A stretch of DNA of 60,417 nucleotides, filler included, from Dehalococcoidia bacterium (GTDB taxonomy: Bacteria; Chloroflexota; Dehalococcoidia; DSTF01; RBG-16-68-14): NCBI GenBank assembly GCA_040882355.1. It is 3 parts of 2 records of this genome, joined end to end, with 100 filler letters (N's around TTAATTAATTAA, not from the genome) between each part and the next. Parts side by side here need not be neighbours in the genome. Positions count along the whole stretch, not along the records: positions 17,409 to 40,525 come from JBBEBM010000042.1; 2 more parts are not named here. One strand, 5' to 3'. The notes below the pieces were generated by a model. It did no database searches. It saw only the letters and a program-made list of their open reading frames with translations, and was not told where the DNA came from. A program made the position numbers and the translations under genes. Every line of letters starts with the position of its first letter. Within the stretch, counting starts at the first letter, position 1. This document shows positions 8,781 through 55,726 of this stretch, piece after piece.

Positions 8781-8796
8781 ACCCCCAGACGGGGGT
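8781..8796. terminator. Hairpin after the remnant gene
   Basis: ACCCCC-AGAC-GGGGGT immediately after the TAA at 8798. Confidence 0.4.
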
Positions 8797-8797
8797 C

Positions 8798-9001: not shown

Positions 9002-9140
9002 GGCTCCTGCCGAGATCATCGACGGGCAATCACGCAGACGAGTGGTCGCCATCTTCATTTCGGGTTAGGGGGGCTGAGGCTGCGTTCCGTCAGGCGATCC
9101 ACTGGCCCGCGTGTCATATCAGGCCTGGCGTCGGCCCTCT

Positions 9141-9455
9141 CTATTGCTCGAGCAGGAACTCGGTGAAGGGCGGCGGCCTCATCTTGTCTATGTAGACGAC
9201 GGAGACGATGCCCTCCTGTGGAAAATGGTAATAGAAGTAGTATTTTCCGTCGGTGCAGAGCACGCCATTTTGGGCGGGCCCGACCGGCAAAGAGATCTTC
9301 GTGAGATGGCGCGGAAGGGGATCTTCAGCGAGCGGGTGCTTCTCAATGCCTTCGTAGAGGAGGCGCTGAACCTCCTCAAGCTCAGGGGGATTCAGGCTCT
9401 CGTAGAAGCGTCTGGCCTGTCCCTCCTGTGGCACATAAACCTCATACTCCCCCAT
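9141..9455 (-). CDS. Putative RelE/ParE-like toxin
   Basis: 104 aa: YEVY..EGQARRFYESL...EEVQRLL..IEKHP followed by beta-rich DGKYYFYYHF..GIVSVVYI. The size and layout fit RelE/ParE, but the sequence is divergent. Confidence 0.55.
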   Translation of the reverse strand: MGEYEVYVPQEGQARRFYESLNPPELEEVQRLLYEGIEKHPLAEDPLPRHLTKISLPVGPAQNGVLCTDGKYYFYYHFPQEGIVSVVYIDKMRPPPFTEFLLEQ

Positions 9456-9624
9456 TGGAGGCTTTGTGCCGGTCAATATCCCTGAGCGGAACCCGTCCGG
9501 ATTTTTCCTCCTGCTGGAGCTGCTTCTGTATCTCCGCCAGAAGGTCCTTATCCCGCTGGGCGGCTGTCCTCAGCCGCTTAGCCGAGAGCCCCTTCTGTGC
9601 GCGGTCAAACCCCTTCTTCGGCAT
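9442..9624 (-). CDS. Small basic protein, putative antitoxin
   Basis: 60 aa (MPKKGFDR...) overlapping the start of the RelE-like ORF. The start codon is uncertain. Confidence 0.45.
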   Translation of the reverse strand: MPKKGFDRAQKGLSAKRLRTAAQRDKDLLAEIQKQLQQEEKSGRVPLRDIDRHKASNGGV

Positions 9625-9868
9625 GGTGGCAATTGCTAGGACTAGCGCCACTGGTACACGCAGCGCCCTCGAAGCAAGCATCGGCACCTTCAAGTGTAAC
9701 CTTGAGGAGGTCCTGGGCGCCGCCGTGAACCTATTGTCGCTAGTCACGCTCTACCATCCAATCTTAGTCCGCCTTCGGGCCGCTACTATTGTGGTAGTTG
9801 TAAACGAAGTCCTAAGTCTCTGTCAATAGGGCTCTTGTCATAGTCAGCTCTAGCTGGGTATTGATGGG

Positions 9869-12535: not shown

Positions 12536-12700
12536 CGCAGACTCGCTCGCAAGCGTAATGCTAGTGGTTGCGGATCGGGGCGGTCAAGGAGAATGAAAGG
12601 AGGAGGCCTGCGACGGCGCATCGCCGTTCTGCAGTTGCACAGCGCCTCCAGCGGGCCGACTATCCTAAAGAGCGTATAATCGCATGAAGGAAACGTATTC

Positions 12701-14773: not shown

Positions 14774-14798
14774 AGTTCCGTTACTAGACCGATTACCG

Positions 14799-14827
14799 TT
14801 GACACCAAGCGGGAACGCGGGTAAGGT
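14799..14827 (+). promoter_or_regulatory. sigma70-type promoter
   Basis: TTGACA-N17-TAAGGT upstream of 14968. Confidence 0.55.
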
Positions 14828-14967
14828 TGGGCGTGTCCCGTTCCGGCGTCACGAGATCGTTCGACCAGCTTGGGGCGTTCGTAACAACGGGAGCCGTTCG
14901 ACGCAGGGAGCAGCGCGAGCGGGTGTGCTGGCACGGAGGCCGCACCAACGCGGGATAGCGAGCTTCA

Positions 14968-16614
14968 GTGACAGGATTCCGTCTTCCTCTGCACGGCGCA
15001 CAGCTCTTTGCCGCGCTCTTGCTCCTCAGCGGGCTCGTCGTCGTTGCCATCGCCCTGCCCATCAGTTCGTCGGCCACGCAGAAGCACGACCGCCCTCTCG
15101 ACGTGATCAAGATCGTGGCCAAGTGCGCGACCGACGCTGGCGTCACGGGCAAGATCACCGTTCGCAACGGGCGAGACGTGCCGATCAACGACAACATCCC
15201 TCTCGTCCTCACGCAGCACATCCCGGTATCACAGGGCGGCAGCTCGGACTTCATCCCTGCCGGTGTCTCGACGCTGGTGAAGGTCGACCTCGAGCCGGGC
15301 GAGACCGCCAGCTTCCCCTTCGGACCGCTCAGCACCACAACCGTTGACTCCAGGGCGAACTCCCTTCGCGTAGAAGTCGATGTCAAGGCCCGGCCCGACC
15401 TGAACAAGGAGAAGTCAGAGAGCTTCAAGCCCTGCAAGGCGACACCGGTGAAGTCGCCCACCGCCACGCCAAAGACACGCACCTCCACCCCGGTCAAGTC
15501 CGTCACCGCCACGCCGAAGACGCGAACGGCTACGCCGGTCAAGTCCGTCACCGCCACACCCAAGCGCACAAACACGCCGACGCCGACCAAGAAGGCGACA
15601 CTGACGCCCACGCCCACGAAGAAGCGCACCGCCACCCCCACCAGGACCGCGACTCCCACGAATACGCCTACCTCAACCCCGACCGCGACCCGCACACCGA
15701 CGCCCACGAGTACTGCGAGCTCCACGCCAACGCGCACCAGCACGCCTACCGCAACCCCGACCTCCACGTCGACGAGCACCGCCACGAGCACACCAACGCC
15801 CACTCCCACGAACACACCCACTGCCACGAATACGCCGACGCCAACCATCACACCGACTTCCACGCGGACCAGCACGCCAACCAACACACCGACTTCCACG
15901 CGGACCAACACACCGACTTCCACGCGGACCAGCACGCCAACAGCAACGAACACGGCCACCCGGACGGCCACACCAACGCCGACCCGGACAGCAACACCGA
16001 CGAATACAGCGACCAGCACGCCAACGACGACGCTCACAACAACGCCGACCGCCAGTCCGACCCACACAAGCACGCTGGAACCGACCGGGACCCCGCCGTC
16101 CTCCTCGCCCACGCCGACGATCACCCGCGTCAGCGAGGTGCTCGGCCCGACGCCCACATTCCCCGGCGTCAACGAGCTGCCTCGCTCGGGCCTCAACGAC
16201 GTGGGCGACCAGGGCAACACCTGGTCGCCCTGGATGGTCGCCGGGCTCGCGCTCGCCACCTCCGGCGCCGGCCTCTCGCTGAGCGCCAAGCTGATGCGCG
16301 ACCGGCGCCACGGAGGCCCTCGCCGCCCCGGTGGCGGCGCCCGCCTCCACCGCGCGTCTCAGCCCGCTAGCCAGCCGGAAGCTGCTGCGCCCGTCCTCGT
16401 GCGCATCGCCCCCATCGCCGACTTCAGCGACTTCGTCGCGGTGCTGCGCGCGCTGAACCACACGCCCGCCGTCGAGCAGGCGCAGGCGGTCTTGCTGGAA
16501 AACAACGCGGGCCTCTTCGAAGTCACGCCCTTGCTACCACTCGCCCGGGAGACGCTGATCGAGGCTCTAGAGCGGGCGATAGGCCGTGACGTACGCATCG
16601 ATCCAGACGATTGA
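14968..16614 (+). CDS. Pro/Thr-rich surface protein with LPRSG sorting-like motif, TM helix and extra C-terminal domain
   Basis: Signal peptide; ~120-aa Cys-bounded domain; three 15-aa [14 protein letters not shown] repeats; long TP stalk; LPRSG...[26 protein letters not shown]; then ~100 more residues. Confidence 0.8.
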
Positions 16615-16655
16615 CGTAGGGGAGCCTGCTCAGGGATGAAGCATCGAATGCACGG

Positions 16656-17308
16656 ATGCCACTACAGCGGCTTATCGCGCCTGCGCTGACCGCCGCGCTC
16701 ATCGGCGTGGCCGTCCTCGCGCTGGCGCTCACGCGAGGCGGGGGGGGCTCTGACCCCACATCACTCGCCATCTCGTCCATCACCGCCACCTCCACAGCGA
16801 GCCCAACGCACACCCCGACCGCAAGCCCCACGCCCACTCCCCCACCCACTCCGACCTCGACGCCGCTGCCGCCGCCGCCGCCTCGACCGCAGGTCCAGCA
16901 GGCGCCGGCCCAGCCCCCGCAGCCGGCAGCGCGAACGTACTCGGAAGCGGGCTTCGCATCGCAGGTGGTGGCGCTCGTCAATGCGGAACGCGCGTCCAGG
17001 GGCCTCGGCCAGCTCTCCTCGAACGGCGCGCTCTCGAACAGCGCATCGAGCTACGCTCGCCAGCTCCTCCAGTACAGCTCTCTCTCGCACAGCGCCGGCG
17101 GCACCACGCTCTCGGGCCGGGTAGCAGCCGCCGGCTACGGCGGCGGGCCGCCGCTCGGGGAAGTGCTCTGGCTAGGCGTCGGACGCCTGCCGCCGGAGCG
17201 GGTCGTGTCGGACTGGATGAACAGCCCTTCCCACAGAGAGGTCATCCTCAACCCCACCTACGACCGCGCCGGCGTGGGCTGCTACTTCCGTGAGGGGCAG
17301 CGCCTGGA
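16656..17308 (+). CDS. CAP/SCP-domain protein with TM and Pro/Thr linker, truncated by the contig end
   Basis: VVALVNAERA, LSHS, GEVL, WMNSPSHREVILNP and GVG motifs. Confidence 0.88.
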
Positions 17309-17408
17309 NNNNNNNNNNNNNNNNNNNNNNNNNNNNNNNNNNNNNNNNNNNNTTAATTAATTAANNNNNNNNNNNNNNNNNNNNNNNNNNNNNNNNNNNN
17401 NNNNNNNN
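17309..17408. other. Artificial contig-join spacer
   Basis: 100 bp of N around TTAATTAATTAA, which has stops in all six frames. Confidence 0.98.
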
Positions 17409-28958: not shown

Positions 28959-29371
28959 GCGACGACGTCGCCGCGCGTCTCGCCGTCGTCCGTGAGTTCG
29001 CGCAGACGTCGCCCTACTACCAGGCGATGGGTATGGAGCTGGCGGCGATGGAGGAGGGCCGCGTCGTGTTGCGCGTCGTCGTCCAGCCGTCGCACCTGAA
29101 CGCGGACGGCATCGTCCACGGCGGCGTCCTGCCCGCGATCGCGGACGGCGCGATGGGCAACGCGCTGCGCACCCTCCACGGCGACGCGCAGGTGCTCACC
29201 GCCGAAGTTCACCTCCACTATCTGCGCCCGGTGACGGGCGGCGCGCTGCTTGCCGATGGCCGCGTCGTGCAGTCCGGGCGGCGGCTTTCGTTCGCGGAGG
29301 TGGAGATCCGCGACGAGGCGAGCGGCCGGGCCGTGGCGAAGGGTAGCGGCCTGTTCGTCATCGAGGTTTGA
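28955..29371 (+). CDS. PaaI-family thioesterase
   Basis: HLNADGIVHGG..AIAD and HYLRPV hot-dog motifs. Confidence 0.9.
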   Translation: MSDDVAARLAVVREFAQTSPYYQAMGMELAAMEEGRVVLRVVVQPSHLNADGIVHGGVLPAIADGAMGNALRTLHGDAQVLTAEVHLHYLRPVTGGALLADGRVVQSGRRLSFAEVEIRDEASGRAVAKGSGLFVIEV

Positions 29372-29756
29372 TTGACCAGTCCGTTTTGCAAAATCACCCT
29401 TTCCAGGAGGCGGCTCCCGAAGCCGGCCGACGCCTTGGGCGGCGGGCTGTGAATCTGAGCGGGGCGTTTGATTGATCCGGCTCAAAACCTCGCTCAGGAC
29501 TGGCCGGCTGGAAGGTGGCAGTTGGCTCGGCAGAATCGTGTTTTCCCGGCGGGACATGGCCGATCTCCTCTCGATTCGCATCTAGCGCGGGCCCGCCGAA
29601 CGGCGCATGCCTGCGCAGGGTTATCGAGGGTAGGGTAGGGCCGCGGTGGGAGAGCGCGAAGGGGTGGACGGCACCGCACCGGTCGCTGGTCGCTCGTTGG
29701 TAGTGGGTCAGTTTGATTGAATCTGCATGATGGCAGATGATCCGAGCGTCACCACT

Positions 29757-30194
29757 CTATGGGGTCGCCTCGTCGTCCCACGTGATGGCAAGGGGCAACA
29801 CCGCGACCGGTTCACCATCGCACAGGAACCGGAACTCGTAGTCGGTGCTTCGCTGAAAGACGAACTCCCCGCTATCGATTTCGATAATCAGTCTGTGGTC
29901 TGGCGTTGGCCCCCAAGTGAACGTCCTGGGCGGAAGGAATAGATCGGGTTCCGTGAGAGATGAGCCGAACGCCCCGACAATCGTAACGTCCCTTTCAGGT
30001 TCGCCGCCCCGCAAGTCCAGAACGGCCAGCATCGCCGGAAACGTGCAGAGCATCCCATCCTTGCCTGAGGCGACGTAGTCCGCTCGTGTGCTGGACGGCA
30101 GGCGCAAGCTCGTGATGGGCACGATCTCCAGTAGTTCGCCGTCACCACCCCGGCGATCCTTCACCAAGGCGCCTGCAACCACTCGGATAGCCAT
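29757..30194 (-). CDS. Hypothetical beta-rich passenger protein (DUF6941-like)
   Basis: SD GGAGG; 145 aa; C-terminal YEFRFLCDGEPVAVLPLAI pattern. Confidence 0.55.
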   Translation of the reverse strand: MAIRVVAGALVKDRRGGDGELLEIVPITSLRLPSSTRADYVASGKDGMLCTFPAMLAVLDLRGGEPERDVTIVGAFGSSLTEPDLFLPPRTFTWGPTPDHRLIIEIDSGEFVFQRSTDYEFRFLCDGEPVAVLPLAITWDDEATP

Positions 30195-30231
30195 CTTGCG
30201 CCCTCCCTGGTAGGTGTGGCATCATAGTAGC

Positions 30232-30471
30232 ATGCCCAAGCGGTCAAGCAAGCCCCGTGACGTGAACGCCCTGGCCGCGTCTATCGTGGCCGAGGCGACG
30301 GGCGACGCACCGGCGCAGCGTAATGACGGCAAGAACCCTGCCGCCGTCGCGCTAGGTAGGCTGGGCGGGCTCAAGGGCGGCAAGGCGCGGGCGGCCAAGC
30401 TCAGCGCCAAGAAGCGGCGGGAGATCGCGAAGAAGGCGGCGGCGGCGCGATGGGAACGAGCTCGGCGCTAA
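30232..30471 (+). CDS. Small Lys/Ala-rich basic protein typical of IS1-like element cargo (often annotated histone H1-like)
   Basis: PRDVNALA..IV..ATG, KNPAAVALGRLGGLKGGKARA..LS...R.EIAKKAA.ARW. Confidence 0.85.
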   Translation: MPKRSSKPRDVNALAASIVAEATGDAPAQRNDGKNPAAVALGRLGGLKGGKARAAKLSAKKRREIAKKAAAARWERARR

Positions 30472-30947
30472 GCAGTCTTGTCGCCCTCGCGGCGCCACTC
30501 CACATCGTCTGTGAAGTCCGCTGGCATTACGATTGGCTCTTCTGCGGGGTTGATCCTGTTCCAGTGCTCGGCGTCGAATGTTAGCTGCACCACGTCGCCC
30601 ACGACTTGCTCTCGACGATTTACGAGGGACTTCAGCATAGGCGCTCTCGGAGCATCGTCGATATCTACCCAAAGGTAGAGTTGTTCGCCATGCACACCGC
30701 GCTTGTAAGGGAGGGCATGATTTGCTCGGTACGGCCTGCCAGTCTTGGAATCATGCCTAACCTCCTCACGCGCGGCTTGCGAAAACTGGGCTACCAAGAG
30801 ATCGAACGGGTCGGGCGGCGTCGGCAACTGCCAGCCAAGCTTAACGGCATATGCCGTGACCGCGTGCAGGTCGATTTCCGCCTCGCCGGTTTCAGATCGA
30901 TAGCGGCGCATCATCGCTTGCATTTGCCGGTTCTTTGAAATCCTCAT
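30468..30947 (-). CDS. Conserved-looking hypothetical protein downstream of the HTH-IrrE gene
   Basis: SD AAGGAG; 159 aa; co-oriented 14 bp after the HigA/IrrE gene. Confidence 0.75.
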   Translation of the reverse strand: MRISKNRQMQAMMRRYRSETGEAEIDLHAVTAYAVKLGWQLPTPPDPFDLLVAQFSQAAREEVRHDSKTGRPYRANHALPYKRGVHGEQLYLWVDIDDAPRAPMLKSLVNRREQVVGDVVQLTFDAEHWNRINPAEEPIVMPADFTDDVEWRREGDKTA

Positions 30948-30961
30948 CCCGTACTCCTTCG

Positions 30962-32107
30962 CTAGATTCCGACTGGCACTATGTCACCCCAGCCATCAAC
31001 AATCGCGCTCGGCCTGACCATGTCCCGAATCTTGACTAGATGGCTGCGAAAGCGTTCATAGCGACCTGTCTCGTGCTGCAATTGACCCGCAACGATTCCC
31101 GGATGCACTCGTAAGGTTCGGGCAAAGCCTAGAATGTCTCGTTCAGCAAAGAACGGTGCCTTGCGCGCGATGAACCGCTTCAATTGGTCCTCGGGTACGC
31201 AGAAGTCGGCGGCGGCGGCGTTTGCGGCTCGCTCTTGCTCGCCCAGTTCCATGCTCGTGCCAGCACGTTCGCCCTCTAGCTCGGCATCCAAGGTGGCTGC
31301 ACCTTGGCCGTGCCCGGCGAGGACATGCTCAAGCTCATGGCGAAGGACAAACCAGAAGTTGTCGATCCTGTCATAGCGTAATGACATCCCGATTACTGGC
31401 GAAGCCTCGTCGAGCCAGAGGCATGCTCCGTCGATCTTGGCGGTCGAGAGTGACTCGACTACTACAAAGCGAATGCCACTCTCAGCCAAAATGCGAGGAG
31501 CCTTCCGCGCTTCTTCCGGTGATAACAGTAAGTTGCTCAGCTTGGCGATGGCACCCCTTCCGGTGGTAGGAGAGTATCGACCGACGATCATTTCGGCGGC
31601 TATCTGCCTAACGCGATAGAGCCAAGCCAACTGTGCCGGCGTGACCTCAGGAGACACGTTTGTCTTCTTGGGCGCGTGGGGAAGTATCTCGATTGCCTCT
31701 AATGATGCCTCGCCAAAGAAGTCCGTCAGGGCAGCTTCAACGCTAGGAACATCGCGAATGTCACTCGCGTTCAGCCAGCCTCGCTGGATCATCTCGGAGA
31801 CTGGCAGGCCGCCAAACAGGTGAGCCCTCGTGCTTCGCCCAGGATCGGGGCGGCTGGCAAAGCGAGCCTGTGCGACATCCGACACCTTTTGAAGCTCTAG
31901 GAAGTCCTCAGCCGGGATGCCGAACAGCTCCTCAAGCTCTACTGCGAGAGGAGCTGTTATCGGACGCTTCCCGGCGATGAGCTTGTTGATGCTTGTTTCG
32001 TGTACGTCGAGCACGATGGCTAGCACCCGCTGTGTCCAGCCCTTCTCCTCTAACGCGGCGGCGATCAGTTGCCCTGGCGTTTTGTACTGGCCCGCGTCTA
32101 TACTCAT
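30962..32107 (-). CDS. HigA-like Xre HTH fused to an ImmA/IrrE (M78) metallopeptidase domain
   Basis: TPGQLI...LEEKGWTQ..LA..L HTH; IDGAC.W; RYDRIDNFWFVLRHELEH (HExxH); E..ANA.A. Confidence 0.9.
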   Translation of the reverse strand: MSIDAGQYKTPGQLIAAALEEKGWTQRVLAIVLDVHETSINKLIAGKRPITAPLAVELEELFGIPAEDFLELQKVSDVAQARFASRPDPGRSTRAHLFGGLPVSEMIQRGWLNASDIRDVPSVEAALTDFFGEASLEAIEILPHAPKKTNVSPEVTPAQLAWLYRVRQIAAEMIVGRYSPTTGRGAIAKLSNLLLSPEEARKAPRILAESGIRFVVVESLSTAKIDGACLWLDEASPVIGMSLRYDRIDNFWFVLRHELEHVLAGHGQGAATLDAELEGERAGTSMELGEQERAANAAAADFCVPEDQLKRFIARKAPFFAERDILGFARTLRVHPGIVAGQLQHETGRYERFRSHLVKIRDMVRPSAIVDGWGDIVPVGI

Positions 32108-32159
32108 GAGAGGTTTATACCACAACCTGCGCAAAATCGCAAACTGGCCTTGCTGGCTA

Positions 32160-32188
32160 TTGACAAGCATTGAGCGCTCAAGTATAAT
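32160..32188 (+). promoter_or_regulatory. Consensus sigma70 promoter of the transposase with a palindromic spacer
   Basis: TTGACA-N17-TATAAT; TTGAGCGCTCAA palindrome at 32170-32181; ATG 7 nt after the -10. Confidence 0.8.
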
Positions 32189-32195
32189 GGTCAGT

Positions 32196-33038
32196 ATGAA
32201 CAAGATGAGTCCAGAGCGTCGGGCACAGGTTATACGGGCGCTGGTCGAGGGCAACTCGATCCGTGCTACCTGTCGCATGACCGGCGCGGCTAAGGGCACC
32301 GTCCTAAAGCTCCTGGCCGACATAGGCGAGGTCTGCGCTCAGTACCACCATGAGAACGTGCGCGGGTTCACGTCCGAGCGCATCCAGTGTGACGAGATAT
32401 GGGCGTTCGTCTACTCGAAGGCGAAGAACGTGCCGAGCGAGTACGCGGGCGTGGGCGACGTGTGGACGTGGGTAGGCATCGACGCCGACACTAAGCTAGT
32501 CGCCTCGTGGATGGTGGGCGGACGTGACGCTCGCTCGGCCAAGGTGTTCATGGACGATCTGTCGCGCCGTCTCGCGCACCGCGTCCAGCTAACGACAGAC
32601 GGCCACGCGGCCTACCTCACGGCGGTCAAGGAAATCTTCGAGGATGAGATCGACTACGCCATGCTGGTCAAGCTGTACGGCGCAGACGCTGAGCAAGAGA
32701 AGCGCTACAGCCCGGCGACGTGTACCGGAGCCGTGCCCAAGACGATCACCGGTAACCCTGACCCGAAGCACGTCTCAACATCCTACGTCGAGCGTCAGAA
32801 CCTCACCATGCGGATGAGCATGCGCCGGTTCACGCGGCTGACCAACGCCTTCTCCAAGAAGCTGGCGAACCTCGAAGCGGCGCTCGCACTGCACTACGTC
32901 TACTACAACTTCTGCCGTAAGCATCAGACGCTTGGCACCACGCCAGCGGTCGAAGCGGGCATCGCTGGCCACGAGTGGACGGTCGATGAGATCGTGGCGC
33001 TGCTGGAAGCGCGGGAAATTTCACGTGACGCAAACTGA
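32196..33038 (+). CDS. IS1-family DDE transposase (single ORF)
   Basis: N-terminal HTH LVEGNSIRATCRMTG; IQCDEIWAFV, QLTTDG and STSYVERQNLTMR; RFTRLTNAFSKK. Confidence 0.92.
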   Translation: MNKMSPERRAQVIRALVEGNSIRATCRMTGAAKGTVLKLLADIGEVCAQYHHENVRGFTSERIQCDEIWAFVYSKAKNVPSEYAGVGDVWTWVGIDADTKLVASWMVGGRDARSAKVFMDDLSRRLAHRVQLTTDGHAAYLTAVKEIFEDEIDYAMLVKLYGADAEQEKRYSPATCTGAVPKTITGNPDPKHVSTSYVERQNLTMRMSMRRFTRLTNAFSKKLANLEAALALHYVYYNFCRKHQTLGTTPAVEAGIAGHEWTVDEIVALLEAREISRDAN

Positions 33039-33091
33039 CCCACTACCCGCTGGTCGCTGGTGGCTAGTCGCTGGTACCCTCTTCGCCCTGG

Positions 33092-34384: not shown

Positions 34385-34474
34385 TCAGGGACAATTGTCG
34401 CCAGCCCAGCGGTAGCAGCTTCCGAGGGCCGCCCTTGTACTGGCCGGTGTTGGCGTCAACCAGAGCGACGAAGT
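34385..34474 (-). pseudogene. Orphan, frameshifted 3'-end cassette of the upstream paralog family
   Basis: HFVALVDANTGQYKGG/(+1 nt)LGSCYRWAGDNCP*, versus FFVALIDADTGDYLTGIGACYNSAGDSCP*. Confidence 0.75.
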
Positions 34475-34501
34475 GCCCGACGTCAATGGAACGGCCATCA
34501 T

Positions 34502-34972
34502 TCAGGGACAACTGTCTCCAGCCGAGTTGTAGCAGGCCCCGATCCCGGTCAGGTAATCGCCCGTGTCCGCGTCGATCAGCGCGACAAAGAACCTGTGGTG
34601 GGGAATCTCGCTCACATCCATGCTGAAGATCCAGGCGTTGCAACCGCTGGGGCACTCATACCAACCTGACTCGACGCGAGCGAGCTTCGCCTCGCGAACC
34701 CCATCGAAGGGCGCCTCCTCCTCAACAACCCGCTCGGCTTCTTCGCGGCTGAGCGACACGGCGTCAGTGGCGAGCGCCGTCAGCTCCAGGTCGCCGAAGT
34801 CCTCGGCAAGGAGCGTATCCAGCGACGGGCCTGACGTCGGAGCCTCGTCCTCGATCGTTGCGGGCGGTGAGAGCTGCGCGCTGAGCACGAACCACAGACC
34901 GAGGGCGGCAGCGACTCCTAGGGCGAGCGCTCCCAGGGCCCGGAAGCGGCGGCGTTCTAGCAGTTGTCTCAT
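34502..34972 (-). CDS. Membrane-anchored Cys-containing protein, tandem paralog B (PepSY-like DA.TG motif)
   Basis: 156 aa with N-terminal TM, CPSGC and CY.....CP; colinear with 35005-35475. Confidence 0.8.
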   Translation of the reverse strand: MRQLLERRRFRALGALALGVAAALGLWFVLSAQLSPPATIEDEAPTSGPSLDTLLAEDFGDLELTALATDAVSLSREEAERVVEEEAPFDGVREAKLARVESGWYECPSGCNAWIFSMDVSEIPHHRFFVALIDADTGDYLTGIGACYNSAGDSCP

Positions 34973-35004
34973 GGCTTCCTCCTAGCGCCGAAGCGCTTGG
35001 TCAG

Positions 35005-35475
35005 TCAGGGACAGCTGGAGCCGGCCCAGTTGTAGCAAGCGCCGATTCCCTGGAGGTATTCCCCCGTGTCTGCGTCGACCAGCGCGACGAAGAACCTGTG
35101 GTGGGGCATCTCGCTCACATCCATGCTGAAGATCCAGGCGTTGCAGCCGCCGGGGCACTCATACCAACCCGACTCGACGCGAGCGAGCTTCGCCTCGCCG
35201 ACCTTGTGAAACATCGCCTCCTTCTCAACGACCCGCTGGGCGTCTACGCGGCTGAGCGACACAGCATCGGCGGCGAGCGCCGTCAGCTCCAGGTCGCCCA
35301 TGTCCTCGGCAAGGATCGTGTCCAGCGACGGGCCTGACGCCGGAGCCTCGTCCTCGATCGTTGCGGGCGGTGAGAGCTGCGCGCTGAGCACGAACCACAG
35401 ACCGAGGGCGGCAGCGACTCCTAGGGCGAGCGCTCCCAGGGCCCGGAAGCGGCGGCGTTTCAGCGGTTGTCTCAT
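35005..35475 (-). CDS. Membrane-anchored Cys-containing protein, tandem paralog A
   Basis: 156 aa; near-identical N-half to paralog B, more divergent at the C-terminus. Confidence 0.8.
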   Translation of the reverse strand: MRQPLKRRRFRALGALALGVAAALGLWFVLSAQLSPPATIEDEAPASGPSLDTILAEDMGDLELTALAADAVSLSRVDAQRVVEKEAMFHKVGEAKLARVESGWYECPGGCNAWIFSMDVSEMPHHRFFVALVDADTGEYLQGIGACYNWAGSSCP

Positions 35476-40525: not shown

Positions 40526-40625
40526 NNNNNNNNNNNNNNNNNNNNNNNNNNNNNNNNNNNNNNNNNNNNTTAATTAATTAANNNNNNNNNNNNNNNNNNN
40601 NNNNNNNNNNNNNNNNNNNNNNNNN
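40526..40625. other. Artificial contig-join spacer
   Basis: Same 100-bp N/TTAATTAATTAA linker. Confidence 0.98.
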
Positions 40626-40900
40626 CGTCTTCCGCCCCCTCCGGTTCGCCATCGGCACCGGCGCCCCCGCACCGCCGCCCCCGTTCGGCCCCGCCCCCTC
40701 CGAACCTAGCGCCCCGTCTCCCTGACCGCTGTCTTCCGGACGATCCATCGCAGACCTCCTCGTCGTGGTGAGGCCCAGGGTAGGGCCGCGTGAGCAGAGC
40801 CCGAAGGGGGAAGTGGCGTAGTGTGGCAAGATGGCGGCTAATGCGAGCGGGGCCTTCTCGACTCAAAGCGCGGTGGCTACTATAATGCGCAACAAATGGT

Positions 40901-42187
40901 ATGAGACAAGGCGAGCCCTTTCACAGGTGGGCTCACTACCCTATGGCGTTCGAGCCAGGGCAGGTGCGATTCCTCATCGATTCGCTTCCGACATGTGCCA
41001 CCCCTCGTCTGTTGGACCCGTTCTGTGGATCCGGTGTCTCCCTCGTGGAGGCTAAGTCCCTGCGCATACCCTCGGTGGGAATCGATGCCAACCCATGGGC
41101 CGTGATTCTGGCGCGCAGCAAGACCCAGTGGAACGTCAGGCCAGCCAAGCTCGCGAGCCTCGCAGACCAAATTGCGGACACCGTGACACGTCAACTGAAC
41201 CGAGACCGTCGTGCTGATCCTGGGCGCCGCTGGTTCCTCACGCCTGCCATCGCGTCTGACCCCGCGTTCGAGTACTTCACCGAATCCGGGATGGTGGAGC
41301 GAGGCTGGATCGGGCTCTCGGCCCTCGCCCGAACAATTCGGCTGAGGCAGGCAGTGGAAGCAATGGCCCAGGGCATGTATCGCGATGCGCTGCTAGTGGC
41401 GCTGGCCGCGACTGGGCGGGAGGACATGTCCAACCTGTCTAATGGCCCCGAGGTTTACGTTGGGTACAACGGAGCGAAGCGCCGCGATGTGGTAGCTGCG
41501 TGGCTCGAGAAAGTGTGCAACATAGCCCAAGATCTCGGCGAGACTGACAAGTCGCTCGCGCACGTACCTACCCGTGTGATCCACGGGGATTCACGGGCTT
41601 GTTCTACACTGGTACCGCCTGGTGAGCCCTTCTCGATGGTGGTGACCTCCCCGCCATATCCTGCTGACCATGACTATACGAGGAATGTAAGGCTTGAGCT
41701 GGCTCTTCTAGGATATGCCCGAGATAGGAGCTCTCTACAGGCGATCCGACGGCGCATGATTCGATCGCACAGCAAGTCCGTTTACAAGGGAGACGATGAT
41801 TCCTCATACCTGGGTCCTGGCGACCGCGGCGTGCTGAGAATAGTTGGGCAGCTACAACGCCTTGCCCAAGACCGGTCCGATGGCTTCGCTCGCCAGTATC
41901 CCAAAGTCGTTGCACACTACTTTGGCGGGCTCCTGCGTCATATCTATGACTTGACAGCCTTGCTTGCTCCGGGTGGCCACTGCGCGTTCGTGCTTGGAGA
42001 TCAACAGTCGTTTCTCAATGTCCCTATCCGCACGGCAAAATTGTTTGCTGACTTGATCGTCAAGCGTCCTGAGTTGAACCTGGACGTTCAGGGTATCGTT
42101 GAGCTTCGGCAACGCTACTCGCCAACCAGGCAGGTGTGCCTGAGCGAAAATGCGGTCATAATCGCGAAGCGAGACACGATTCAATGA
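40901..42187 (+). CDS. Amino-DNA methyltransferase, probably N4-cytosine, alpha-class motif order
   Basis: HRW..Y, motif I LLDPFCGSG then GIDANP, and later GDSR and motif IV VVTSPPY. Confidence 0.88.
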   Translation: MRQGEPFHRWAHYPMAFEPGQVRFLIDSLPTCATPRLLDPFCGSGVSLVEAKSLRIPSVGIDANPWAVILARSKTQWNVRPAKLASLADQIADTVTRQLNRDRRADPGRRWFLTPAIASDPAFEYFTESGMVERGWIGLSALARTIRLRQAVEAMAQGMYRDALLVALAATGREDMSNLSNGPEVYVGYNGAKRRDVVAAWLEKVCNIAQDLGETDKSLAHVPTRVIHGDSRACSTLVPPGEPFSMVVTSPPYPADHDYTRNVRLELALLGYARDRSSLQAIRRRMIRSHSKSVYKGDDDSSYLGPGDRGVLRIVGQLQRLAQDRSDGFARQYPKVVAHYFGGLLRHIYDLTALLAPGGHCAFVLGDQQSFLNVPIRTAKLFADLIVKRPELNLDVQGIVELRQRYSPTRQVCLSENAVIIAKRDTIQ

Positions 42188-43737
42188 CGCAGTTTCAAGA
42201 CATCTTGGTCTCCACAAAACTCCTGGGCCACATAAGCGAGGGATTTTATACCAGCCCGGCAGCGGCGATGAAGGAACTCATCAGCAACTCCTTCGATGCC
42301 GGGGCGACAAGAGTAGACCTCACTACGAACTGGCCCTACTTCGATATCTTCACTGCGACAGACAATGGCAGTGGGATGGAGGCTGCTGATTTTCGTAGCC
42401 TGATGCGAGGAGGGATTGGAACTAGTAAGAAGCGGGTAACGGGCGCGCCGCGTCCAGGGTATGGGCGACCTACGATCGGCAGGTTAGGTGTCGGCGTCCT
42501 TGCAATAGGGCAGTTCTGTCATTCGTTCCAATTTGAGTCTCACCATTCTGGAACACGTACGGCCTTCTCGGCCACTGTAAGCCTTACTCAAAAGGCGCCT
42601 CAGAGGCTCGATGAGTCGGATCCTAACCGCAAGAAATTTGATGTTGGAAAGTTCAAGGTGGAGCGGGTCCCATATGACGTGGAAAGGCGTGGTACGAGAA
42701 TCTTGTCGGACGATCTGAAGGAGAGCTTCATTCGCAAGATGGCGGCCTCGGTTCTCTTAGACGGAGAGCTAAAGCCGCCAGTTCAACGTGACTTTGTCGC
42801 GTTCTTCCAAGATGTCGCGCAATCGAGACGCGGCCTAGCCGACGCAGGAGAGTATGCCAAACTGATCTGGGGGCTGGCGCACTATGCCCCAGTCCAATAC
42901 ATGAATGATGGTCCGATTGAAGGTCGCCGGGTGGCTGTCGAGCATAAGGCTAGACTGGATGCGTACAAGTTCGAAGTCATTGTGGACGGTTGCTCGCTTA
43001 GGAAGCCGGTGCTCCTTCCCTCGTCGCGCCAGACAGCTCAAGGAGGCGTGGCACCACGCATCAATCCGTACTCTCTGCACATCGACAAGACGGTGCTAGG
43101 AGAGCGTTTGGAAGTGAAGGGCTATGTCGCGATCCAGTATGGCCAGGCTATACAGCCGCCTGAGTTGCGTGGCTTGGTGATTCGCGTTCGCGACGTCGCT
43201 ATCGGCACCTATGACCGGTCGCTGCTAGGCTATCCGTTCGTGGAGGGACCTCGCTCTGAGTGGGTCAGTGGCGAGCTGTACGTCGTATCTGGGCTAGAGG
43301 ACGCATTGACCGCGCCGAGAGAGACCTTCGACAGTCTTCACCCTCACTATGAACAGCTTCAGGACGCGGTATTCTCGACGCTCCATAACAGAGTATTTCC
43401 CGACGCCTACAAGGGAATAGCTGAGAGGACGCTGGCTCGCCGTGAGGAAGCTGCAGCGAAGCTGTTGATCGACGGGCAAACGCTCTTGGAAGAGGAGCTG
43501 GATCTCAAACTGCGAGTGGCGCGGGGCCCGACTCGTGTCAGCTCAGTACCCGTGGAGATAGATCTGAGGCGTGGGCGTGTTACCATCAACGAGTCGTACT
43601 CGTGGCCACGGGCTCGTGCGCGGAGGGACGTACTTCAACGAGTAGCTCTGGCGTTCGAGATTTCCCGACAGCTGGCTGGTAAAGCAGGCAGCGACCAGGC
43701 AGAGATGTTCTACCGCCTCCTCAGGAGACTGGTATAG
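42184..43737 (+). CDS. GHKL/MORC-family ATPase
   Basis: Y.SP..A.KELISNSFDAGA, DNGSGM, IGTS.K, IGRLGVG.LA, GT.I; S5-like GLVIRVRDV.IG..GEL....L....RE.F. ATGA-coupled to the methyltransferase. Confidence 0.88.
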   Translation: MTQFQDILVSTKLLGHISEGFYTSPAAAMKELISNSFDAGATRVDLTTNWPYFDIFTATDNGSGMEAADFRSLMRGGIGTSKKRVTGAPRPGYGRPTIGRLGVGVLAIGQFCHSFQFESHHSGTRTAFSATVSLTQKAPQRLDESDPNRKKFDVGKFKVERVPYDVERRGTRILSDDLKESFIRKMAASVLLDGELKPPVQRDFVAFFQDVAQSRRGLADAGEYAKLIWGLAHYAPVQYMNDGPIEGRRVAVEHKARLDAYKFEVIVDGCSLRKPVLLPSSRQTAQGGVAPRINPYSLHIDKTVLGERLEVKGYVAIQYGQAIQPPELRGLVIRVRDVAIGTYDRSLLGYPFVEGPRSEWVSGELYVVSGLEDALTAPRETFDSLHPHYEQLQDAVFSTLHNRVFPDAYKGIAERTLARREEAAAKLLIDGQTLLEEELDLKLRVARGPTRVSSVPVEIDLRRGRVTINESYSWPRARARRDVLQRVALAFEISRQLAGKAGSDQAEMFYRLLRRLV

Positions 43738-43744
43738 CCGTCAA

Positions 43745-44815
43745 GTGGCGATTGATTACGACACCGACGTGCCAAAGCAGTTCGTCCGTGAACGTGGCTG
43801 GCTCAAGGCTGCGCTACAGACGAGCAAGACGATCGGACCCGGTAGTGGGCTCCGCTACCTGACATTCTGCGCAGTCGAAGCGATCGACGTGTTCTTGCTG
43901 GATCTCCACGACCTCCTCGATCGCGACCCCGCTTCAGGAAAGTTTCGAGACGTCTATTTCTGCGAGCGAGGGCCCGACGCCTTCCGTGAGATATCCGGTA
44001 TTCTTGGTCTGCAGGGATTTCTCGGCGAATTCGAAGATATCGTGCTGTTCGAGGAGGAGGAGGGGCCCGACACGGCGAATCTCAAGCCCCTGGACCATGA
44101 GATAGAGGCGTCAGAACCCCAACGGCGGCGGCTGAGGGTGAAGCGGTCTGCCGCCAATTTCCGAGAGGCATTCCCCTTTGATGTTATCAACTTGGATTTC
44201 GATGGGACGCTGTTCCCGCCCCAACAGCCGGCGGACAGTCGCCTATTCCAGGCGGTCAAGCGCGTCATAGAATGGCAGCGGACTCCGCCATCTGGCGCGC
44301 AGGGGCCAGCAGAGTTTACGCTTTTCTTGACTACGCGGGTAGACAGAGACCGCTTTGGGAGTGAGGCGTTGAAGGTCCTGATCGACTTGGTAGAGGACAA
44401 TGTCGACCAAGACCCGGGGTTCAAGGCTGGGTTCGCGAAACGGTTCAGCGGGTCGCCGGCTGACGTGGCTGCAAACGATCTCGGTCCCTTTTGCGCTGCA
44501 AGCTTGCCTAAGCAGATCCTTGAGGACGCGGTTCATTTGTCCTGGAAGGCCCAGTACCGTGACATCTTCATCTACCGGCGCACGCCTAAGAACGGTTCTG
44601 AATACCATATGGTGAGCTTCGTCTGCCACTTCACGCGGATGCCGAAGAAGGTTTCGCTGAAAGCCATGCGAGACGTGCTGGCCGAGGCGACGGCCATTGT
44701 CGCGAACGAGCCTTGCGACGTAGATCGAGAACTCGGCGACTCGGCGATTCGTGACACGCTTAGGGCGAACTTGGCGGCGGTTGTTGAGCACCGCGCGAAG
44801 GCCACGAGCCCTTGA
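43745..44815 (+). CDS. Hypothetical protein with Rossmann/methyltransferase-like motifs
   Basis: 356 aa; LRYLTFCA..AIDV, VYFCE, FPFDVINLDF, FTLFLT and Y.....YHMVSF; 7 bp after the ATPase. Confidence 0.65.
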   Translation: MAIDYDTDVPKQFVRERGWLKAALQTSKTIGPGSGLRYLTFCAVEAIDVFLLDLHDLLDRDPASGKFRDVYFCERGPDAFREISGILGLQGFLGEFEDIVLFEEEEGPDTANLKPLDHEIEASEPQRRRLRVKRSAANFREAFPFDVINLDFDGTLFPPQQPADSRLFQAVKRVIEWQRTPPSGAQGPAEFTLFLTTRVDRDRFGSEALKVLIDLVEDNVDQDPGFKAGFAKRFSGSPADVAANDLGPFCAASLPKQILEDAVHLSWKAQYRDIFIYRRTPKNGSEYHMVSFVCHFTRMPKKVSLKAMRDVLAEATAIVANEPCDVDRELGDSAIRDTLRANLAAVVEHRAKATSP

Positions 44816-45139
44816 CGCAGCTGAGGTGCCGAAGAATGCACGGCACCATCGGTCGGGGGCATGGGGCCATCGCCAACTGCGGGCCGCTGTCCAGGGTGGT
44901 TGACCTTGCAGCGCGGGCAGTCACCAAGCGATACCGCCTGTCGGCAGCCAGACCTCGCTACCCTCACCCCGGCCCCTCTCGCGAACCCTAGGCTGGCCCC
45001 CCTGCCACCCGCCCCTTGGCGCTCTCGCCGCCCGGCCTTACCCTCGTGCTCTACAACTCGCCGTGGGGAGGGCCCTCCGAGGGCGGTCCTCTCAGATTCG
45101 GCGCAGGAAGGGAGGATCGCCGTGATCCGGCGAAAAAGG

Positions 45140-45162
45140 CGATTTTGCAAATCGTAATGACA
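45140..45162 (+). repeat. Dispersed intergenic repeat, copy 2
   Basis: CGATTTTGCAAATCGTAATGACA. Confidence 0.6.
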
Positions 45163-45289
45163 TGAACCGCGCGCCAGGCCGGGCGTCGCCCGCCGGCGCC
45201 CTCACGCTGCGGGCGCTATTTACTGTCGAAAGTCGCTCTGCTAGACTGCGCAGGCAAACGGACAGCCCATCTTGCACGGAGGTACAGCC

Positions 45290-45796
45290 ATGAAAGCCCT
45301 ACTTCGCCTCATCGACCGGATCAGCCCGCCGGAGACCGTCCACGCCCACTGCGACATCCCCTGCGGCATCTACGACCCGCACCTGGCGCAGATCGGCGCG
45401 CTCACCTGCATCCGCATGAACCAGCTCATCAACGACCTCGGCGACTCGCCGGGCCCGGGGGACAAGAAGAAGAATGACGCGTGGCACAGCTCGCTCGGCC
45501 GCTACATCACGGTGAAGGAGGAGCACGCGGAGCTGGTGAAGCGAGAGGTGCGCATCATCTGGGGCGACTTCTTCAAGCCGGAGCACCTGGAGAAGAGCCC
45601 TGACCTCCACGCCACGGTCTGGAACATCATGAAGGGCGGCTCCAAGGTGCGCCAGAACATCGACCTGGCCGCCGCGGAAGAGCTGCTCGCCGGGGTACAG
45701 AAGTTCGCCGAAGCGTTTTGGGCGGCGAAGGGCGTCAAGACCCAGCGAGTGCCGTCGCAGCAGGCCGTCGGCGGCGAGCTCGTCGTCCCGGCGTAA
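45290..45796 (+). CDS. sodN: Nickel superoxide dismutase precursor
   Basis: SD GGAGG; leader ending VHA then Ni-hook HCDIPCGIYDP; KEEHA..VK; IWGDFFKP. Confidence 0.96.
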   Translation: MKALLRLIDRISPPETVHAHCDIPCGIYDPHLAQIGALTCIRMNQLINDLGDSPGPGDKKKNDAWHSSLGRYITVKEEHAELVKREVRIIWGDFFKPEHLEKSPDLHATVWNIMKGGSKVRQNIDLAAAEELLAGVQKFAEAFWAAKGVKTQRVPSQQAVGGELVVPA

Positions 45797-45803
45797 GGCC
45801 ACG

Positions 45804-46124
45804 ATGCTGCGAACGCTCGGGGCGCTGGTGCCGCTCGGCCGCTATCGCGTGGCCGGGCGGAGCATGACGCCTGCGCTGATCGAAGGCGAACGCGTCCTCG
45901 TCAACAAGGCCGCCTACTGGTTCGCCACGCCGCGCCCCGACGACGTCGTCGTCCTGCGCGACCCGCGCGCGCCGCAACGATTGCTGATCAAGCGCATCGA
46001 ACGCGCGGCCGGCGTCGACGAGTGGCTGGTGGCCGGCGACAACCCGGACGCCAGCACCGACAGCCGCGCCTTCGGCCCCGTCGCCCGCGACGCCATCGTC
46101 GGCAAGGTGTGGCTGCGGTACTAG
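45804..46124 (+). CDS. sodX: Ni-SOD maturation protease (S26-like)
   Basis: V.G.SM.P.L, LIKRI and GDNP.ASTDSR.FGPV; directly after sodN. Confidence 0.92.
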   Translation: MLRTLGALVPLGRYRVAGRSMTPALIEGERVLVNKAAYWFATPRPDDVVVLRDPRAPQRLLIKRIERAAGVDEWLVAGDNPDASTDSRAFGPVARDAIVGKVWLRY

Positions 46125-46174
46125 GTTCGATCGCATCGTGCCCGGGCTGAAGGCCCGGGCCGAAGGTTCTAAGA

Positions 46175-46208
46175 AGAGGAGGGGCGTTCACAGAAACGCC
46201 CCTCCTCT
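46175..46208. terminator. Hairpin between convergent genes
   Basis: AGAGGAGGGGCGTT-N6-AACGCCCCTCCTCT 14-bp stem. Confidence 0.7.
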
Positions 46209-46227
46209 CAGTAAGCGCGAGCTGTCG

Positions 46228-47034
46228 CTACCTGGCGTCCATCGCCTCGGCCAGGTCGCGGGCATCCACACCCGTCGATCCGCCGGCGGGCGCCATCACG
46301 ATCACCATGCGCATCTGGTCGCCGTCGAGGAAGCCGTACATCTCCATCGCGATGCCGTCGGCGAACGGGTTGTCTTCCTCCGGCGCGCCCAACGCGCCGA
46401 GCAGGCCGGCGATGTCCATGGTCATGCGCATGCCGAACCCGCTCTCGCCCAGACCGTCGGCGTCGAGCACGTCGATCTCAGCGAAGCCGAGGCCGGACTC
46501 GCCGGCGAGGCTCTCGATCTCGTCGAGGTCGTCCTCGCTCAGATCGAAGCTTCCCATGTCTTCGAGCGCCTCAGGCGGCAGCACCGCGGCGGCGGACATC
46601 ACGATCGCGTTGAACTCACCGCTCTCGACGTCGCCGCTCATGAACATGCTCGCCGCCAGATCGAGGTCGCCCGCTTCGCTCGGCACGGAGTAGCCGAAGC
46701 TGCCCATGTCAAGGAAGTCGCCGGGCAGGTCGCCCGCGGTGAGGAGCGCCGCCGCCAGCGTCGGGTCCGGTTCGCCCATCGAGGCGGCGCTTCCGCTCAG
46801 GCCGCCCAATACGTCGAAGGGGTTGAACGCGGCGAAGGGATCGCCGCCCGCGTCGTCGCCCGACGCGCTGTCGGCGTCGTCTGTCGCGACGGCGCTGTCG
46901 TCGGTCGCCTGGGCGTCGGACCCGGGCGGGTCTGCGACCTCAGTGGGCGCGCTGCCGCTCTTGTCACCGCCGCTGTTGCAGGCGGCGAGGAGCAGCACGA
47001 GCGGGAGGAGCAGGAACGCGAGTTTTCGGGGCAT
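46228..47034 (-). CDS. Acidic lipoprotein of unknown function
   Basis: SD GGAGG; lipobox LAAC; ALLTAGDLP motif. Confidence 0.8.
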   Translation of the reverse strand: MPRKLAFLLLPLVLLLAACNSGGDKSGSAPTEVADPPGSDAQATDDSAVATDDADSASGDDAGGDPFAAFNPFDVLGGLSGSAASMGEPDPTLAAALLTAGDLPGDFLDMGSFGYSVPSEAGDLDLAASMFMSGDVESGEFNAIVMSAAAVLPPEALEDMGSFDLSEDDLDEIESLAGESGLGFAEIDVLDADGLGESGFGMRMTMDIAGLLGALGAPEEDNPFADGIAMEMYGFLDGDQMRMVIVMAPAGGSTGVDARDLAEAMDAR

Positions 47035-47163
47035 GAGACCTCCTTCTGGGGGCAAGGGTGCCCTGTCTCATCATCGGCCTGAGCTGAGCCCGACTTCAGG
47101 GCGGAGGGGCGCTAAGGGGTCGGCCAAGGGGCGTACGCCGCTGGATTGGCCGGGCCTACTAGC

Positions 47164-47796
47164 CTAGCTAGCGGACTGAGACGGGACCTTCTTCTCGAAG
47201 GGAGGGAAGAGCGACTCCAGCTCGAGCCGGATCGGGTCTTCCGGCGGCAGGTAGGCGCTGAAGTCGCCGTCCGGCTCGGGACGCTCGCGCTCGCCGGTGT
47301 GACCGGCATCACGGATGCGGTCCTGGAGCAGCATCAGGCCCTGGAGCAGCGACTCAGGCCTGGGCGGACAGCCCGGCACGTACACATCTACCGGTGCAAT
47401 CAGGTTGACGCCCGGGAGCGTACTGTAACCGAACGCAAATGGCCCGCCCATCGTCGCGCAACCGCCGAAGGCGATCACCCAGCGTGGTTCCGCCATCTGC
47501 AGGTAGATGCGGCGCACGGCGGGCGACATCTTCCACGTCACTGTGCCCGCCACGATCATCAGGTCGGCCTGGCGCGGCGAGGCGCGGAAGACCTCCGCGC
47601 CGAAGCGGGCGATGTCATAGCGGGAGGTGGCCGTGGCGATCATCTCGATCGCGCAGCAGGCGAGTCCGAACATCACCGGCCAGAGTGACGAGCTGCGCGC
47701 CCAGTTCAGCACCGAGTCGACGGAGGAGAGGAGCAGGTTTCCGCTCAGCTCGTCCTCGATGTCCGTGGTCAGCAGCGGGACTGCCTCTGAAGCCAT
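47164..47796 (-). CDS. nuoB: NADH-quinone oxidoreductase subunit B
   Basis: [22 protein letters not shown] and [14 protein letters not shown]. Confidence 0.96.
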
Positions 47797-47901
47797 CGCG
47801 AGTTTGAGAACTCCTCACTGCGCATTCTAGGCGGTTGTGAACGAGGGCGCAATGGCGCCGAGTGCCGGTGAGCGAGTGGACATAAGCGCTGGAAGTGATA
47901 C

Positions 47902-47930
47902 TGGACAGAATGGTTATTGGGCACTACACT
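47902..47930 (+). promoter_or_regulatory. sigma70-type promoter upstream of the scaffoldin
   Basis: TGGACA-N17-TACACT. Confidence 0.55.
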
Positions 47931-48160
47931 TACCGTAATTCGAGGGGGAGCGGCGTCCATGAGGGGCCTGGTTCCTCCTCGATTTGTGTCTCAGTAGCTT
48001 GCTTCCGGCGGGCTTGTGGCAAGGACGCCTCAGTCCTCGCGATACGACTACTGCGCGTGGGCGTTTGGATTATGAACGGCTGCGAATGGTGGGGGCGCAG
48101 GCGAGCCGGAAGGCCGCCTGCTGCCTCTGCTTTGCGCGGGTGTCCTTTCTGGGAGGGAGA

Positions 48161-52855: not shown

Positions 52856-52916
52856 CCGGATGTTGAGGATGAGAGTTGAGGAGGTGGAGGCGAAATGGCT
52901 CACAACAGCGGGCCTC

Positions 52917-52944
52917 TTTACAGAATTCGCGGAACGCGTATAAT
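52917..52944 (+). promoter_or_regulatory. sigma70-type promoter
   Basis: TTTACA-N16-TATAAT; supports a start at 53015 rather than 52895. Confidence 0.55.
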
Positions 52945-53014
52945 GACGGGGCTTACCTCTCCAAGCGCGCGTCCGCTGCGGGTAGCGGGCCCGCCTCCCC
53001 GCCGGAGTGAACGG

Positions 53015-55718: not shown

Positions 55719-55726
55719 GGGAAACC

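Follow-up and report, generated by a model that had tools for sequence, protein, structure and literature searches.

The DNA analysed here, hereafter the window, is a stretch of 60,417 nucleotides from the genome of a Dehalococcoidia bacterium (assembly GCA_040882355.1), in which an IS1-type transposase gene is preceded by several unrelated genes. The question raised by this locus is whether transposase and neighbours form one complete mobile element and, if so, how such an element is restrained and what it carries. An earlier note, made from the sequence by itself, had described positions 29699-33047 as a complete passenger-carrying IS1-family element and this description has been borne out, the element of 3,349 bp (G000:C42:93599-96947 by BLAST) having paired ends, an intact transposase and cargo between its repeats. 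Our reading, to which we assign a probability of roughly 0.7, is that it is an autonomous passenger-carrying IS1-family element with a single transposase open reading frame (ORF), a fixed core, swappable cargo, a repressor-controlled promoter and a PD-lambda-2-like module among its passengers. The core comprises terminal inverted repeats of 16-17 bp, a target duplication of 8 bp, a small basic gene near the left end and a transposase gene with its own internal promoter; the basic protein, acting on twin palindromes, would replace the brake exerted by frameshifting and InsA in classical IS1.

Ends, transposase and relatives of the element

The window joins three parts of the assembly (1-17308 = C42:1-17308; 17409-40525 = C42:81309-104425; 40626-60417 = C44) separated by filler at 17309-17408 and 40526-40625, and the element lies wholly within the middle part. 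The features of the element and its flanks are given below as window positions and strand.

29361..29680: host multi-copy intergenic repeat of ~320 bp, the insertion target, ending in a 7-bp tandem array (GGTCGCT-type)
29691..29698, +: left target 8-mer CGCTCGTT, matching the right 8-mer at 6/8
29699..29715, +: left terminal inverted repeat GGTAGTGGGTCAGTTTG
29757..30194, -: 145-aa passenger, distant DUF6941-like, between left repeat and basic gene
30232..30471, +: 79-aa basic protein, core gene, candidate repressor
30232..30251, +: operator-like palindrome copy B, 15/20 to consensus, over the basic-gene start codon
30468..30947, -: 159-aa partner of the helix-turn-helix (HTH)-peptidase, uncharacterised family (model predicted local distance difference test, pLDDT, 92.7)
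30962..32107, -: 381-aa HigA-like Xre HTH fused to an M78 (ImmA/IrrE) zinc peptidase, HExxH intact (HELEH)
32114..32142, -: probable peptidase-operon promoter, leaderless, TTGCGA-17-TATAAA, 6 nt before the ATG, read by eye
32160..32188, +: internal transposase promoter, TTGACA-17-TATAAT (12/12), 7 nt before the ATG at 32196, leaderless
32166-32185: operator-like palindrome copy T, 16/20 to consensus, in the promoter spacer
32196..33038, +: single-ORF IS1-family DDE transposase, 280 aa, N-terminal HTH, no zinc finger, no frameshift
33031..33047, -: right terminal inverted repeat
33048..33055, +: right target 8-mer CGCTGGTC, then further 7-bp repeat units

The ends proved to be as the earlier note had given them, perfect 17-bp repeats starting GGT (17/17 complementary). 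A left repeat nearer to the transposase, which that note had considered as a finding that would speak against it, was sought in a 17-mer search of the 3.33-Mb genome and none was found at up to three mismatches; perfect matches were limited to the two ends of the element and the pair of ends of its sibling on contig C67, so that there is no nearer left end, and the other matches were six in number, each with three mismatches. Between the left repeat and the transposase lie ~2.47 kb with four ORFs, of 145, 79 (basic), 159 and 381 aa. The transposase is, as had been claimed, one uninterrupted frame that runs into the right repeat, its TGA stop falling at 33036-33038. Its best NCBIfam match was the IS1 transposase model NF033558 (E=2.9e-16; 60 bits, under the cut-off of 100), Pfam gave DDE_Tnp_IS1 at E=1.3e-4, and three of the four closest plasmid homologues are annotated 'IS1 family transposase'. 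The residues D69, D138 and E202 (283-aa numbering) are kept in at least 95% of 62 elements, with a D138-E202 spacing of 64; an HTH was placed at residues 8-42 by a weak Pfam match, and the cysteines, at 29, 50, 68, 179 and 243, form no CxxC. A full-length, unannotated transposase homologue, 33.6% identical, was also found in Brevundimonas phage Gurke (ON529850.1:174791-175666), the sole match in the phage collection.

A scan of one genome per species revealed at least 589 relatives, of which the best 80 were examined. Paired ends were found at 60 of these 80 loci; the remaining 20, several of which run off their contigs, were set aside. The 60 delimited relatives range from 2,247 to 6,694 bp, none is cargo-free, and 55 are flanked by perfect 8-bp target duplications, one by a 9-bp duplication and one by a duplication at 7/8, with three showing none. 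At least 722 bp separate the left end from the transposase in the window element, the C67 sibling and all 60 relatives. Hosts include Acidobacteriota, Chloroflexota, Planctomycetota, deltaproteobacteria, Verrucomicrobiota and others. The four-gene layout of the window element is also found in harmless cultured carriers, namely on Mesorhizobium loti 582 plasmid CP050295 and on Methylocapsa pRX1, where three of the genes are annotated. The sibling (C67:57411-59912; L001:3012-5513) is 2,502 bp long and has the same ends, the same basic gene and a transposase 70% identical, and its cargo differs, consisting of a 134-aa ORF, an Xre HTH and DUF3467. This layout recurs with Gp49/RelE matches in L040 and L052, with L053 similar, and is possibly a three-part toxin-antitoxin (TA) system. 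One locus, L097:1485-2067 (G186), is an internally deleted derivative of 583 bp with perfect ends and an 8-bp duplication, probably non-autonomous.

Comparison with known insertion sequences (IS) places the family within IS1 and apart from its classical members. Classical IS1 (E. coli IS1A/E) shares with the window family a DDE transposase with an HTH, GGT-starting repeats and a target duplication of 8-9 bp (PMC12428005). Classical IS1 is, however, 768 bp long and has a zinc finger, an insA/insB -1 frameshift, a weak promoter over the left end and the InsA repressor, whereas the window family measures 2.2-6.7 kb and has one ORF, no zinc finger, an extra core gene, cargo, an internal consensus promoter and a separate palindrome. 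Thus the features that define the IS1 family were found (an IS1-type DDE transposase, GGT repeats and an 8-bp duplication in the relatives, though only 6/8 in the window copy), and those of the classical subgroup (frameshift, zinc finger, length under 1 kb) were absent from the window element. IS derivatives with passenger genes are an established class, the transporter IS (PMC9330008, PMC5704250). The defining arrangement, passengers within one repeat pair and a single transposase, is that of the window element, the sibling and all 60 relatives.

Passenger-carrying IS1 elements are a known kind. Siguier, Gagnevin and Chandler are said to have described in 2009 an ISMhu11-like IS1 subgroup that has a single ORF, lacks the zinc finger and has a longer D-E spacing, and in which, reportedly also in ISfinder and TnPedia, passengers including HTH, peptidase and toxin genes lie upstream of the transposase. 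The window element may belong here, since the HTH, the single ORF, the missing zinc finger and the spacing of 64 fit the features ascribed to the subgroup, which we take as a lead only. We know of no conserved basic core gene, shared operator or defence-dominated slots in ISMhu11-like elements, and these may already be described; literature searches on ISMhu11 and on the IS1 family with anti-phage or defence cargo gave no match, most subscription papers lying outside the search. New here is the palindrome at the two promoters, and the way in which the family is controlled may be new as well.

The basic protein and the proposed control of the transposase promoter

The small basic protein had been counted among the passengers, an assignment that had to be abandoned. 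Basic ORFs cluster in 56 of the 62 elements (BLAST clustering) and the gene is near full length in 57/62 according to a hidden Markov model (HMM) built from 48 of the 62 elements later scanned. An independent sample, 201 genomes from the class to which the host belongs, gave 21 N-terminally complete matches, of which 16 lay within ~6 kb of a transposase; two of the matches are this genome's own. The gene, which typically begins ~65 bp inside the left end across the family, is therefore part of the core and not cargo. GenBank relatives are annotated 'histone H1' and matches in the ESM Atlas carry 'histone H1 family' labels without Pfam support, and the predicted model shows no recognised DNA-binding fold, the best match in a fold search (Z 4.3) being too weak to carry meaning. 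In L015 and L065 the N-terminus of a P63C gene is matched as well by the basic-protein query or HMM, which suggests that P63C proteins and the basic protein may share a small domain.

A consensus scan of the element listed a single promoter, the one upstream of the transposase. Across the family 99 of 115 distinct upstream regions scored at least 9/12 for a promoter, and since 68 of these 99 have an ATG 6-7 nt past the -10 box the transposase mRNA is usually leaderless. The spacer of the promoter carries a 20-bp palindrome with the consensus ATGCTTGAGCGCTCAAGCAT. At 14/20 or better the palindrome was found in the transposase promoter of 38/62 elements, in the basic-gene promoter or first codons of 36/62 at both sites in 33/62 and elsewhere in eight elements, against a background in shuffles of 0.029 sites per kb. 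Non-consensus bases tend to be common to the two sites of one element (48 as against 26.9 +/- 4.3 in shuffled pairs; 45 elements). Because the motif is found across many phyla, the protein that binds it would be encoded by the element.

As the family has neither a frameshift nor InsA, we consider it probable that the strong transposase promoter is restrained by a repressor that the element itself encodes and that acts on the palindrome at both promoters. Only two proteins are conserved in the family, so that there are two candidates for this repressor, the basic protein and the transposase itself. That it is the basic protein, which would then be an autoregulated stand-in for InsA, we put at even odds. 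Classical IS1 is held down ~1000-fold by InsA and again ~1000-fold by frameshifting (PMC12428005). If true, repression at the palindromes would explain why a consensus promoter does not lead to runaway transposition in a single-ORF IS1, and it would give a function to a common protein mislabelled 'histone H1'.

The peptidase module and the cargo of the family

The claim that an HTH-IrrE gene and its partner are passengers held: both lie within the repeats. The 381-aa protein matches HTH_3 and Peptidase_M78 in Pfam, falls just below the cut-off of TIGR02607 (E=3e-12) and matches the PADLOC model PD-Lambda-2_B (PDLC03982) at E=1.7e-49 over residues 39-389 of a 409-aa translation; its residues H257, E258, H261 and E292 are invariant in 29 sequences. 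The consensus scan did not list the probable promoter of this operon, which is divergent from that of the transposase, the two start codons being 88 bp apart. An AAACTGA-like motif precedes the transposase -35 box by ~16 bp in 16 of 21 elements with the module and in 13 of 80 others; the HTH-peptidase may use it as an operator. In the window the motif (32140-32146) falls on the -35 box of the divergent promoter that serves the cargo, and for this reason it was rejected as a candidate inner repeat end.

The 159-aa partner has 232 homologues and no match in Pfam, NCBIfam or PADLOC (the last with eight partner sequences at E<=1). Foldseek found nothing in the PDB at E<=0.001 and an unnamed best match at E=0.034 in BFVD, the best VIA match (Z 5.3) lay on a long helix, so that there is no clear fold match, which is not proof of a new fold, and matches in the ESM Atlas were to unnamed clusters only. 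A search with the partner alone revealed 37 metagenome loci, some of them near-duplicates; the peptidase came before the partner in all 33 that extend upstream, and in 20 of the 24 with room to see one a transposase stood immediately upstream. In L022 the pair forms a three-gene operon with RelE/HigB, and the same HigB-peptidase-partner trio is found without the IS on a Paraburkholderia plasmid, beside restriction and Abi genes; no match to the L022 HigB was found in the window region or the 37 partner loci. Since the trio occurs in both places, the partner has the place of the third gene in an operon that resembles PD-lambda-2. The predicted peptidase-partner complex scored 0.41 against 0.00 for the best control, with contacts agreeing at 96% or more and a partner pLDDT of at least 84. 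Of 157 solved pairs 116 came up to the mark used, and of 215 mismatched pairs 2; at scores of 0.60 or lower the mark was reached by 18 of the 157 and by both mismatches, so that the prediction gives weak support to a complex.

In PD-lambda-2 (Vassallo et al. 2022, PMC9519451), component B is toxic when overexpressed alone, the HigB-like A rescues and C is needed for defence. The window peptidase resembles this system in being a full-length homologue of component B with a third-position gene downstream. It differs in that no HigB-like component A was found in the window element or upstream in the 24 metagenome loci, the 88 bp between the start codons leaving no room for one, and in that the downstream gene belongs to an unrelated 159-aa family and not to PD-lambda-2C (374 positions; P4-antitoxin-related). 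A genome-wide search with PDLC03981 (component A) gave no match, the controls being silent too, and the controls were likewise silent in the search for PD-lambda-2C. By definition, therefore, the window module is not a member of PD-lambda-2, and that it may nevertheless work like one is somewhat favoured on homology and gene order; to the same extent we lean towards viewing the HTH-peptidase and its partner as a HigB-less variant of this anti-phage module. The peptidase would be a self-repressed sensor or toxin and the partner would occupy the third, accessory gene position. The protein is also like Xre-COG2856 (ImmA/IrrE) modules in its fusion of an Xre HTH to an HExxH zinc peptidase. RmrA/RmrT-type modules are cargo in the sister elements L027, L049 and L066, but the window peptidase has no RmrA match at E<=1e-8 and its partner lacks a PIN, RelE or other toxin domain.

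The remaining passenger of the window element, the 145-aa protein, matches DUF6941 in Pfam at E=0.027. HMMER found 24 representatives at E<=0.001, including the protein itself and four repeat-protein matches, and 2 of the 17 scanned matched DUF6941; the protein is absent from the other 61 elements and a word-based search found only itself.

A survey of homologues had been proposed in the earlier note as a check on the cargo, and in all 60 delimited relatives the cargo lay inside the repeats and was varied. It is found mostly between the basic gene and the transposase, after the transposase in 40/60 (where more than 250 bp follow the gene), and in some elements, the one in the window among them, in the space from the left end to the basic gene. 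Scans covered 150 of 199 ORFs by Pfam and 58 proteins by PADLOC. Matches comprised STAND and AbiEii-type ATPases, MazF, Gp49/RelE, YhaV, Fic, Panacea, RelA/SpoT, RhuM, GmrSD, NotI and its methylase, other methylases, RmrTA, P63C and ClpP-like proteases. By a hand tally 29/60 elements have a recognisable defence or TA gene, in keeping with the earlier suggestion of a vehicle for such modules. P63C-domain proteins were the commonest cargo, in 8/60 by Pfam (L013, L015, L036, L047, L063, L065, L074, L079), and weak similarity to proteasome subunits was seen in L019, L024, L034, L039 and L080 (cluster c7; by Pfam in L024 and L080). Other IS are nested in the cargo of L020, L037 and L069 (IS3-type, DDE_Tnp_1_4 and IS1595-type). 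ARAGORN called eight tRNA genes in 7/62 elements (L009, L017, L021, L026, L040, L045, L078), including Ser(act) and one with a 4-base anticodon of no assigned identity, and none in the window element.

Close transposases carry unrelated cargo, so that cargo is exchanged between backbones. In close pairs such as L063/L110 and L002/L036 the shared DNA is confined to the left end with the basic gene and to the promoter with the transposase, and recombination between these conserved flanks would be the simplest route. On a quick tree of 77 transposases the peptidase module requires 16 gains or losses, at least 11 of them forced by well-supported branches, against a shuffled mean of 20. If true, this arrangement provides a simple rule for finding defence genes: the stretches to inspect would run from the basic gene to the transposase promoter and from the transposase to the right repeat. 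In these slots many ORFs have no Pfam family, and on the bolder reading given below the unannotated cargo of the family would be a source of new anti-phage systems.

Age of the copy and competing explanations

For the intergenic repeat into which the element is inserted, 33 or more further right ends that are paralogous were found in the genome, some of them with terminal 7-bp tandem arrays; the repeat is like a miniature inverted-repeat transposable element or a repetitive extragenic palindrome. The flanking 8-mers CGCTCGTT and CGCTGGTC, on which the earlier note is silent, sit within the 7-bp tandem repeat and agree at 6/8, those of the sibling at 7/8, as against perfect duplications in 55/60 relatives. 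A recent insertion, as had been supposed, found no support: the element is single-copy in a 94%-complete assembly, the only sibling shows 75% identity over the transposase, and no empty-site joint was found among the joints listed (four DNA runs from one study, one possibly the source, searched as contigs, which drop rare variants); no RNA run was listed as containing the element. Contigs of runs X1 and X2 bridge both junctions, with even depth in X1 (16.9 and 17.8). A DNA search of 30 relatives found no copy of the element; their upstream host genes were found, and as they belong to other genera the insertion is undated. The window copy looks intact and is probably competent, and it looks settled more than freshly inserted. 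The same imperfect 8-mers, single copy and lack of a listed empty-site joint could be read as marks of a dead or hybrid relic, with ends from different insertions or an adjacent deletion and with trapped host DNA for cargo. This is highly improbable, given that all frames, repeats and promoter boxes are intact, that the same gene order with perfect duplications is found in L107 and the M. loti plasmid element, that loss of one 7-bp array unit after insertion would yield exactly the right flank seen, and that the interior has a G+C content of 60% compared with 67% for the genome.

The two other alternatives concern the workings of the element and not its existence. It is rather unlikely, though worth weighing, that the palindrome is bound by the N-terminal HTH of the transposase or a truncated product of it, the basic protein being a co-regulated cofactor or DNA-bending accessory. 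Autoregulation by the DNA-binding part of the transposase has a precedent in IS1 (PMC12428005); moreover the terminal repeat has GGTCAGT as its inner core, a sequence often met after the -10 box where the transposase gene starts, and the basic gene adjoins the left end. The palindrome is, however, unlike the terminal repeat, so that one HTH would need two specificities, and one site lies over the promoter or start of the basic gene, the usual sign of autorepression by a small repressor; for these two reasons the basic protein is favoured over the transposase. With similar reserve one may ask whether the peptidase and its partner are an addiction (TA) module or a stress switch, serving to retain the element or to set it moving in the way that ImmA mobilises ICEBs1, rather than an anti-phage system. 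The toxicity of overexpressed PD-lambda-2B alone (PMC9519451) would suit this, as would the proposal of Xre-COG2856 fusions as TA systems or regulatory switches and the inactivation of ImmR by ImmA (PMC2701414), the divergence of the peptidase operon from a transposase promoter so close by, and the enrichment of the AAACTGA motif, which is like the terminal repeat, in elements with the module. Yet the module is present in only 6/60 elements and is thus dispensable for the element cycle, it also occurs without the IS, its slot elsewhere holds restriction, STAND, Fic, Panacea, GmrSD and similar genes, and the partner is disrupted in L020.

Several points weigh against the reading preferred here, that of a core with a repressed promoter and defence cargo. 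No palindrome at 14/20 or better was found at either promoter in 21/62 elements, including the C67 sibling (12 and 13/20), and most of these keep the basic gene. The palindrome consensus was derived from the same transposase promoters, which makes the count of T sites circular; related elements are not independent, so that p-values are overstated; and conservation of the protein could maintain site B where it lies over the first codons. The predicted model of the basic protein consists of three loose helices (predicted template modelling score 0.43), and the HMM was run on elements from which it came. The tally of defence genes (29/60) was made by hand, without a background control and within the partial scans given above. 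In L020 the partner gene is split by the IS3-type element while the peptidase frame is intact, which disfavours the partner as an essential antitoxin. A bolder version of the preferred reading, in which a phylum-spanning IS1-like lineage with a novel type of basic repressor and twin operators would serve as a dedicated vector that swaps defence cassettes in fixed slots, among them a HigB-less peptidase defence with a partner of no known fold, is tentative and we regard it as somewhat doubtful.

Beyond the element, the window contains at 34385-35475 tandem ORFs of 156 aa (34502-34972 and 35005-35475, both on the minus strand), which are spaced at 503 bp and 86-89% identical, together with a partial third copy.

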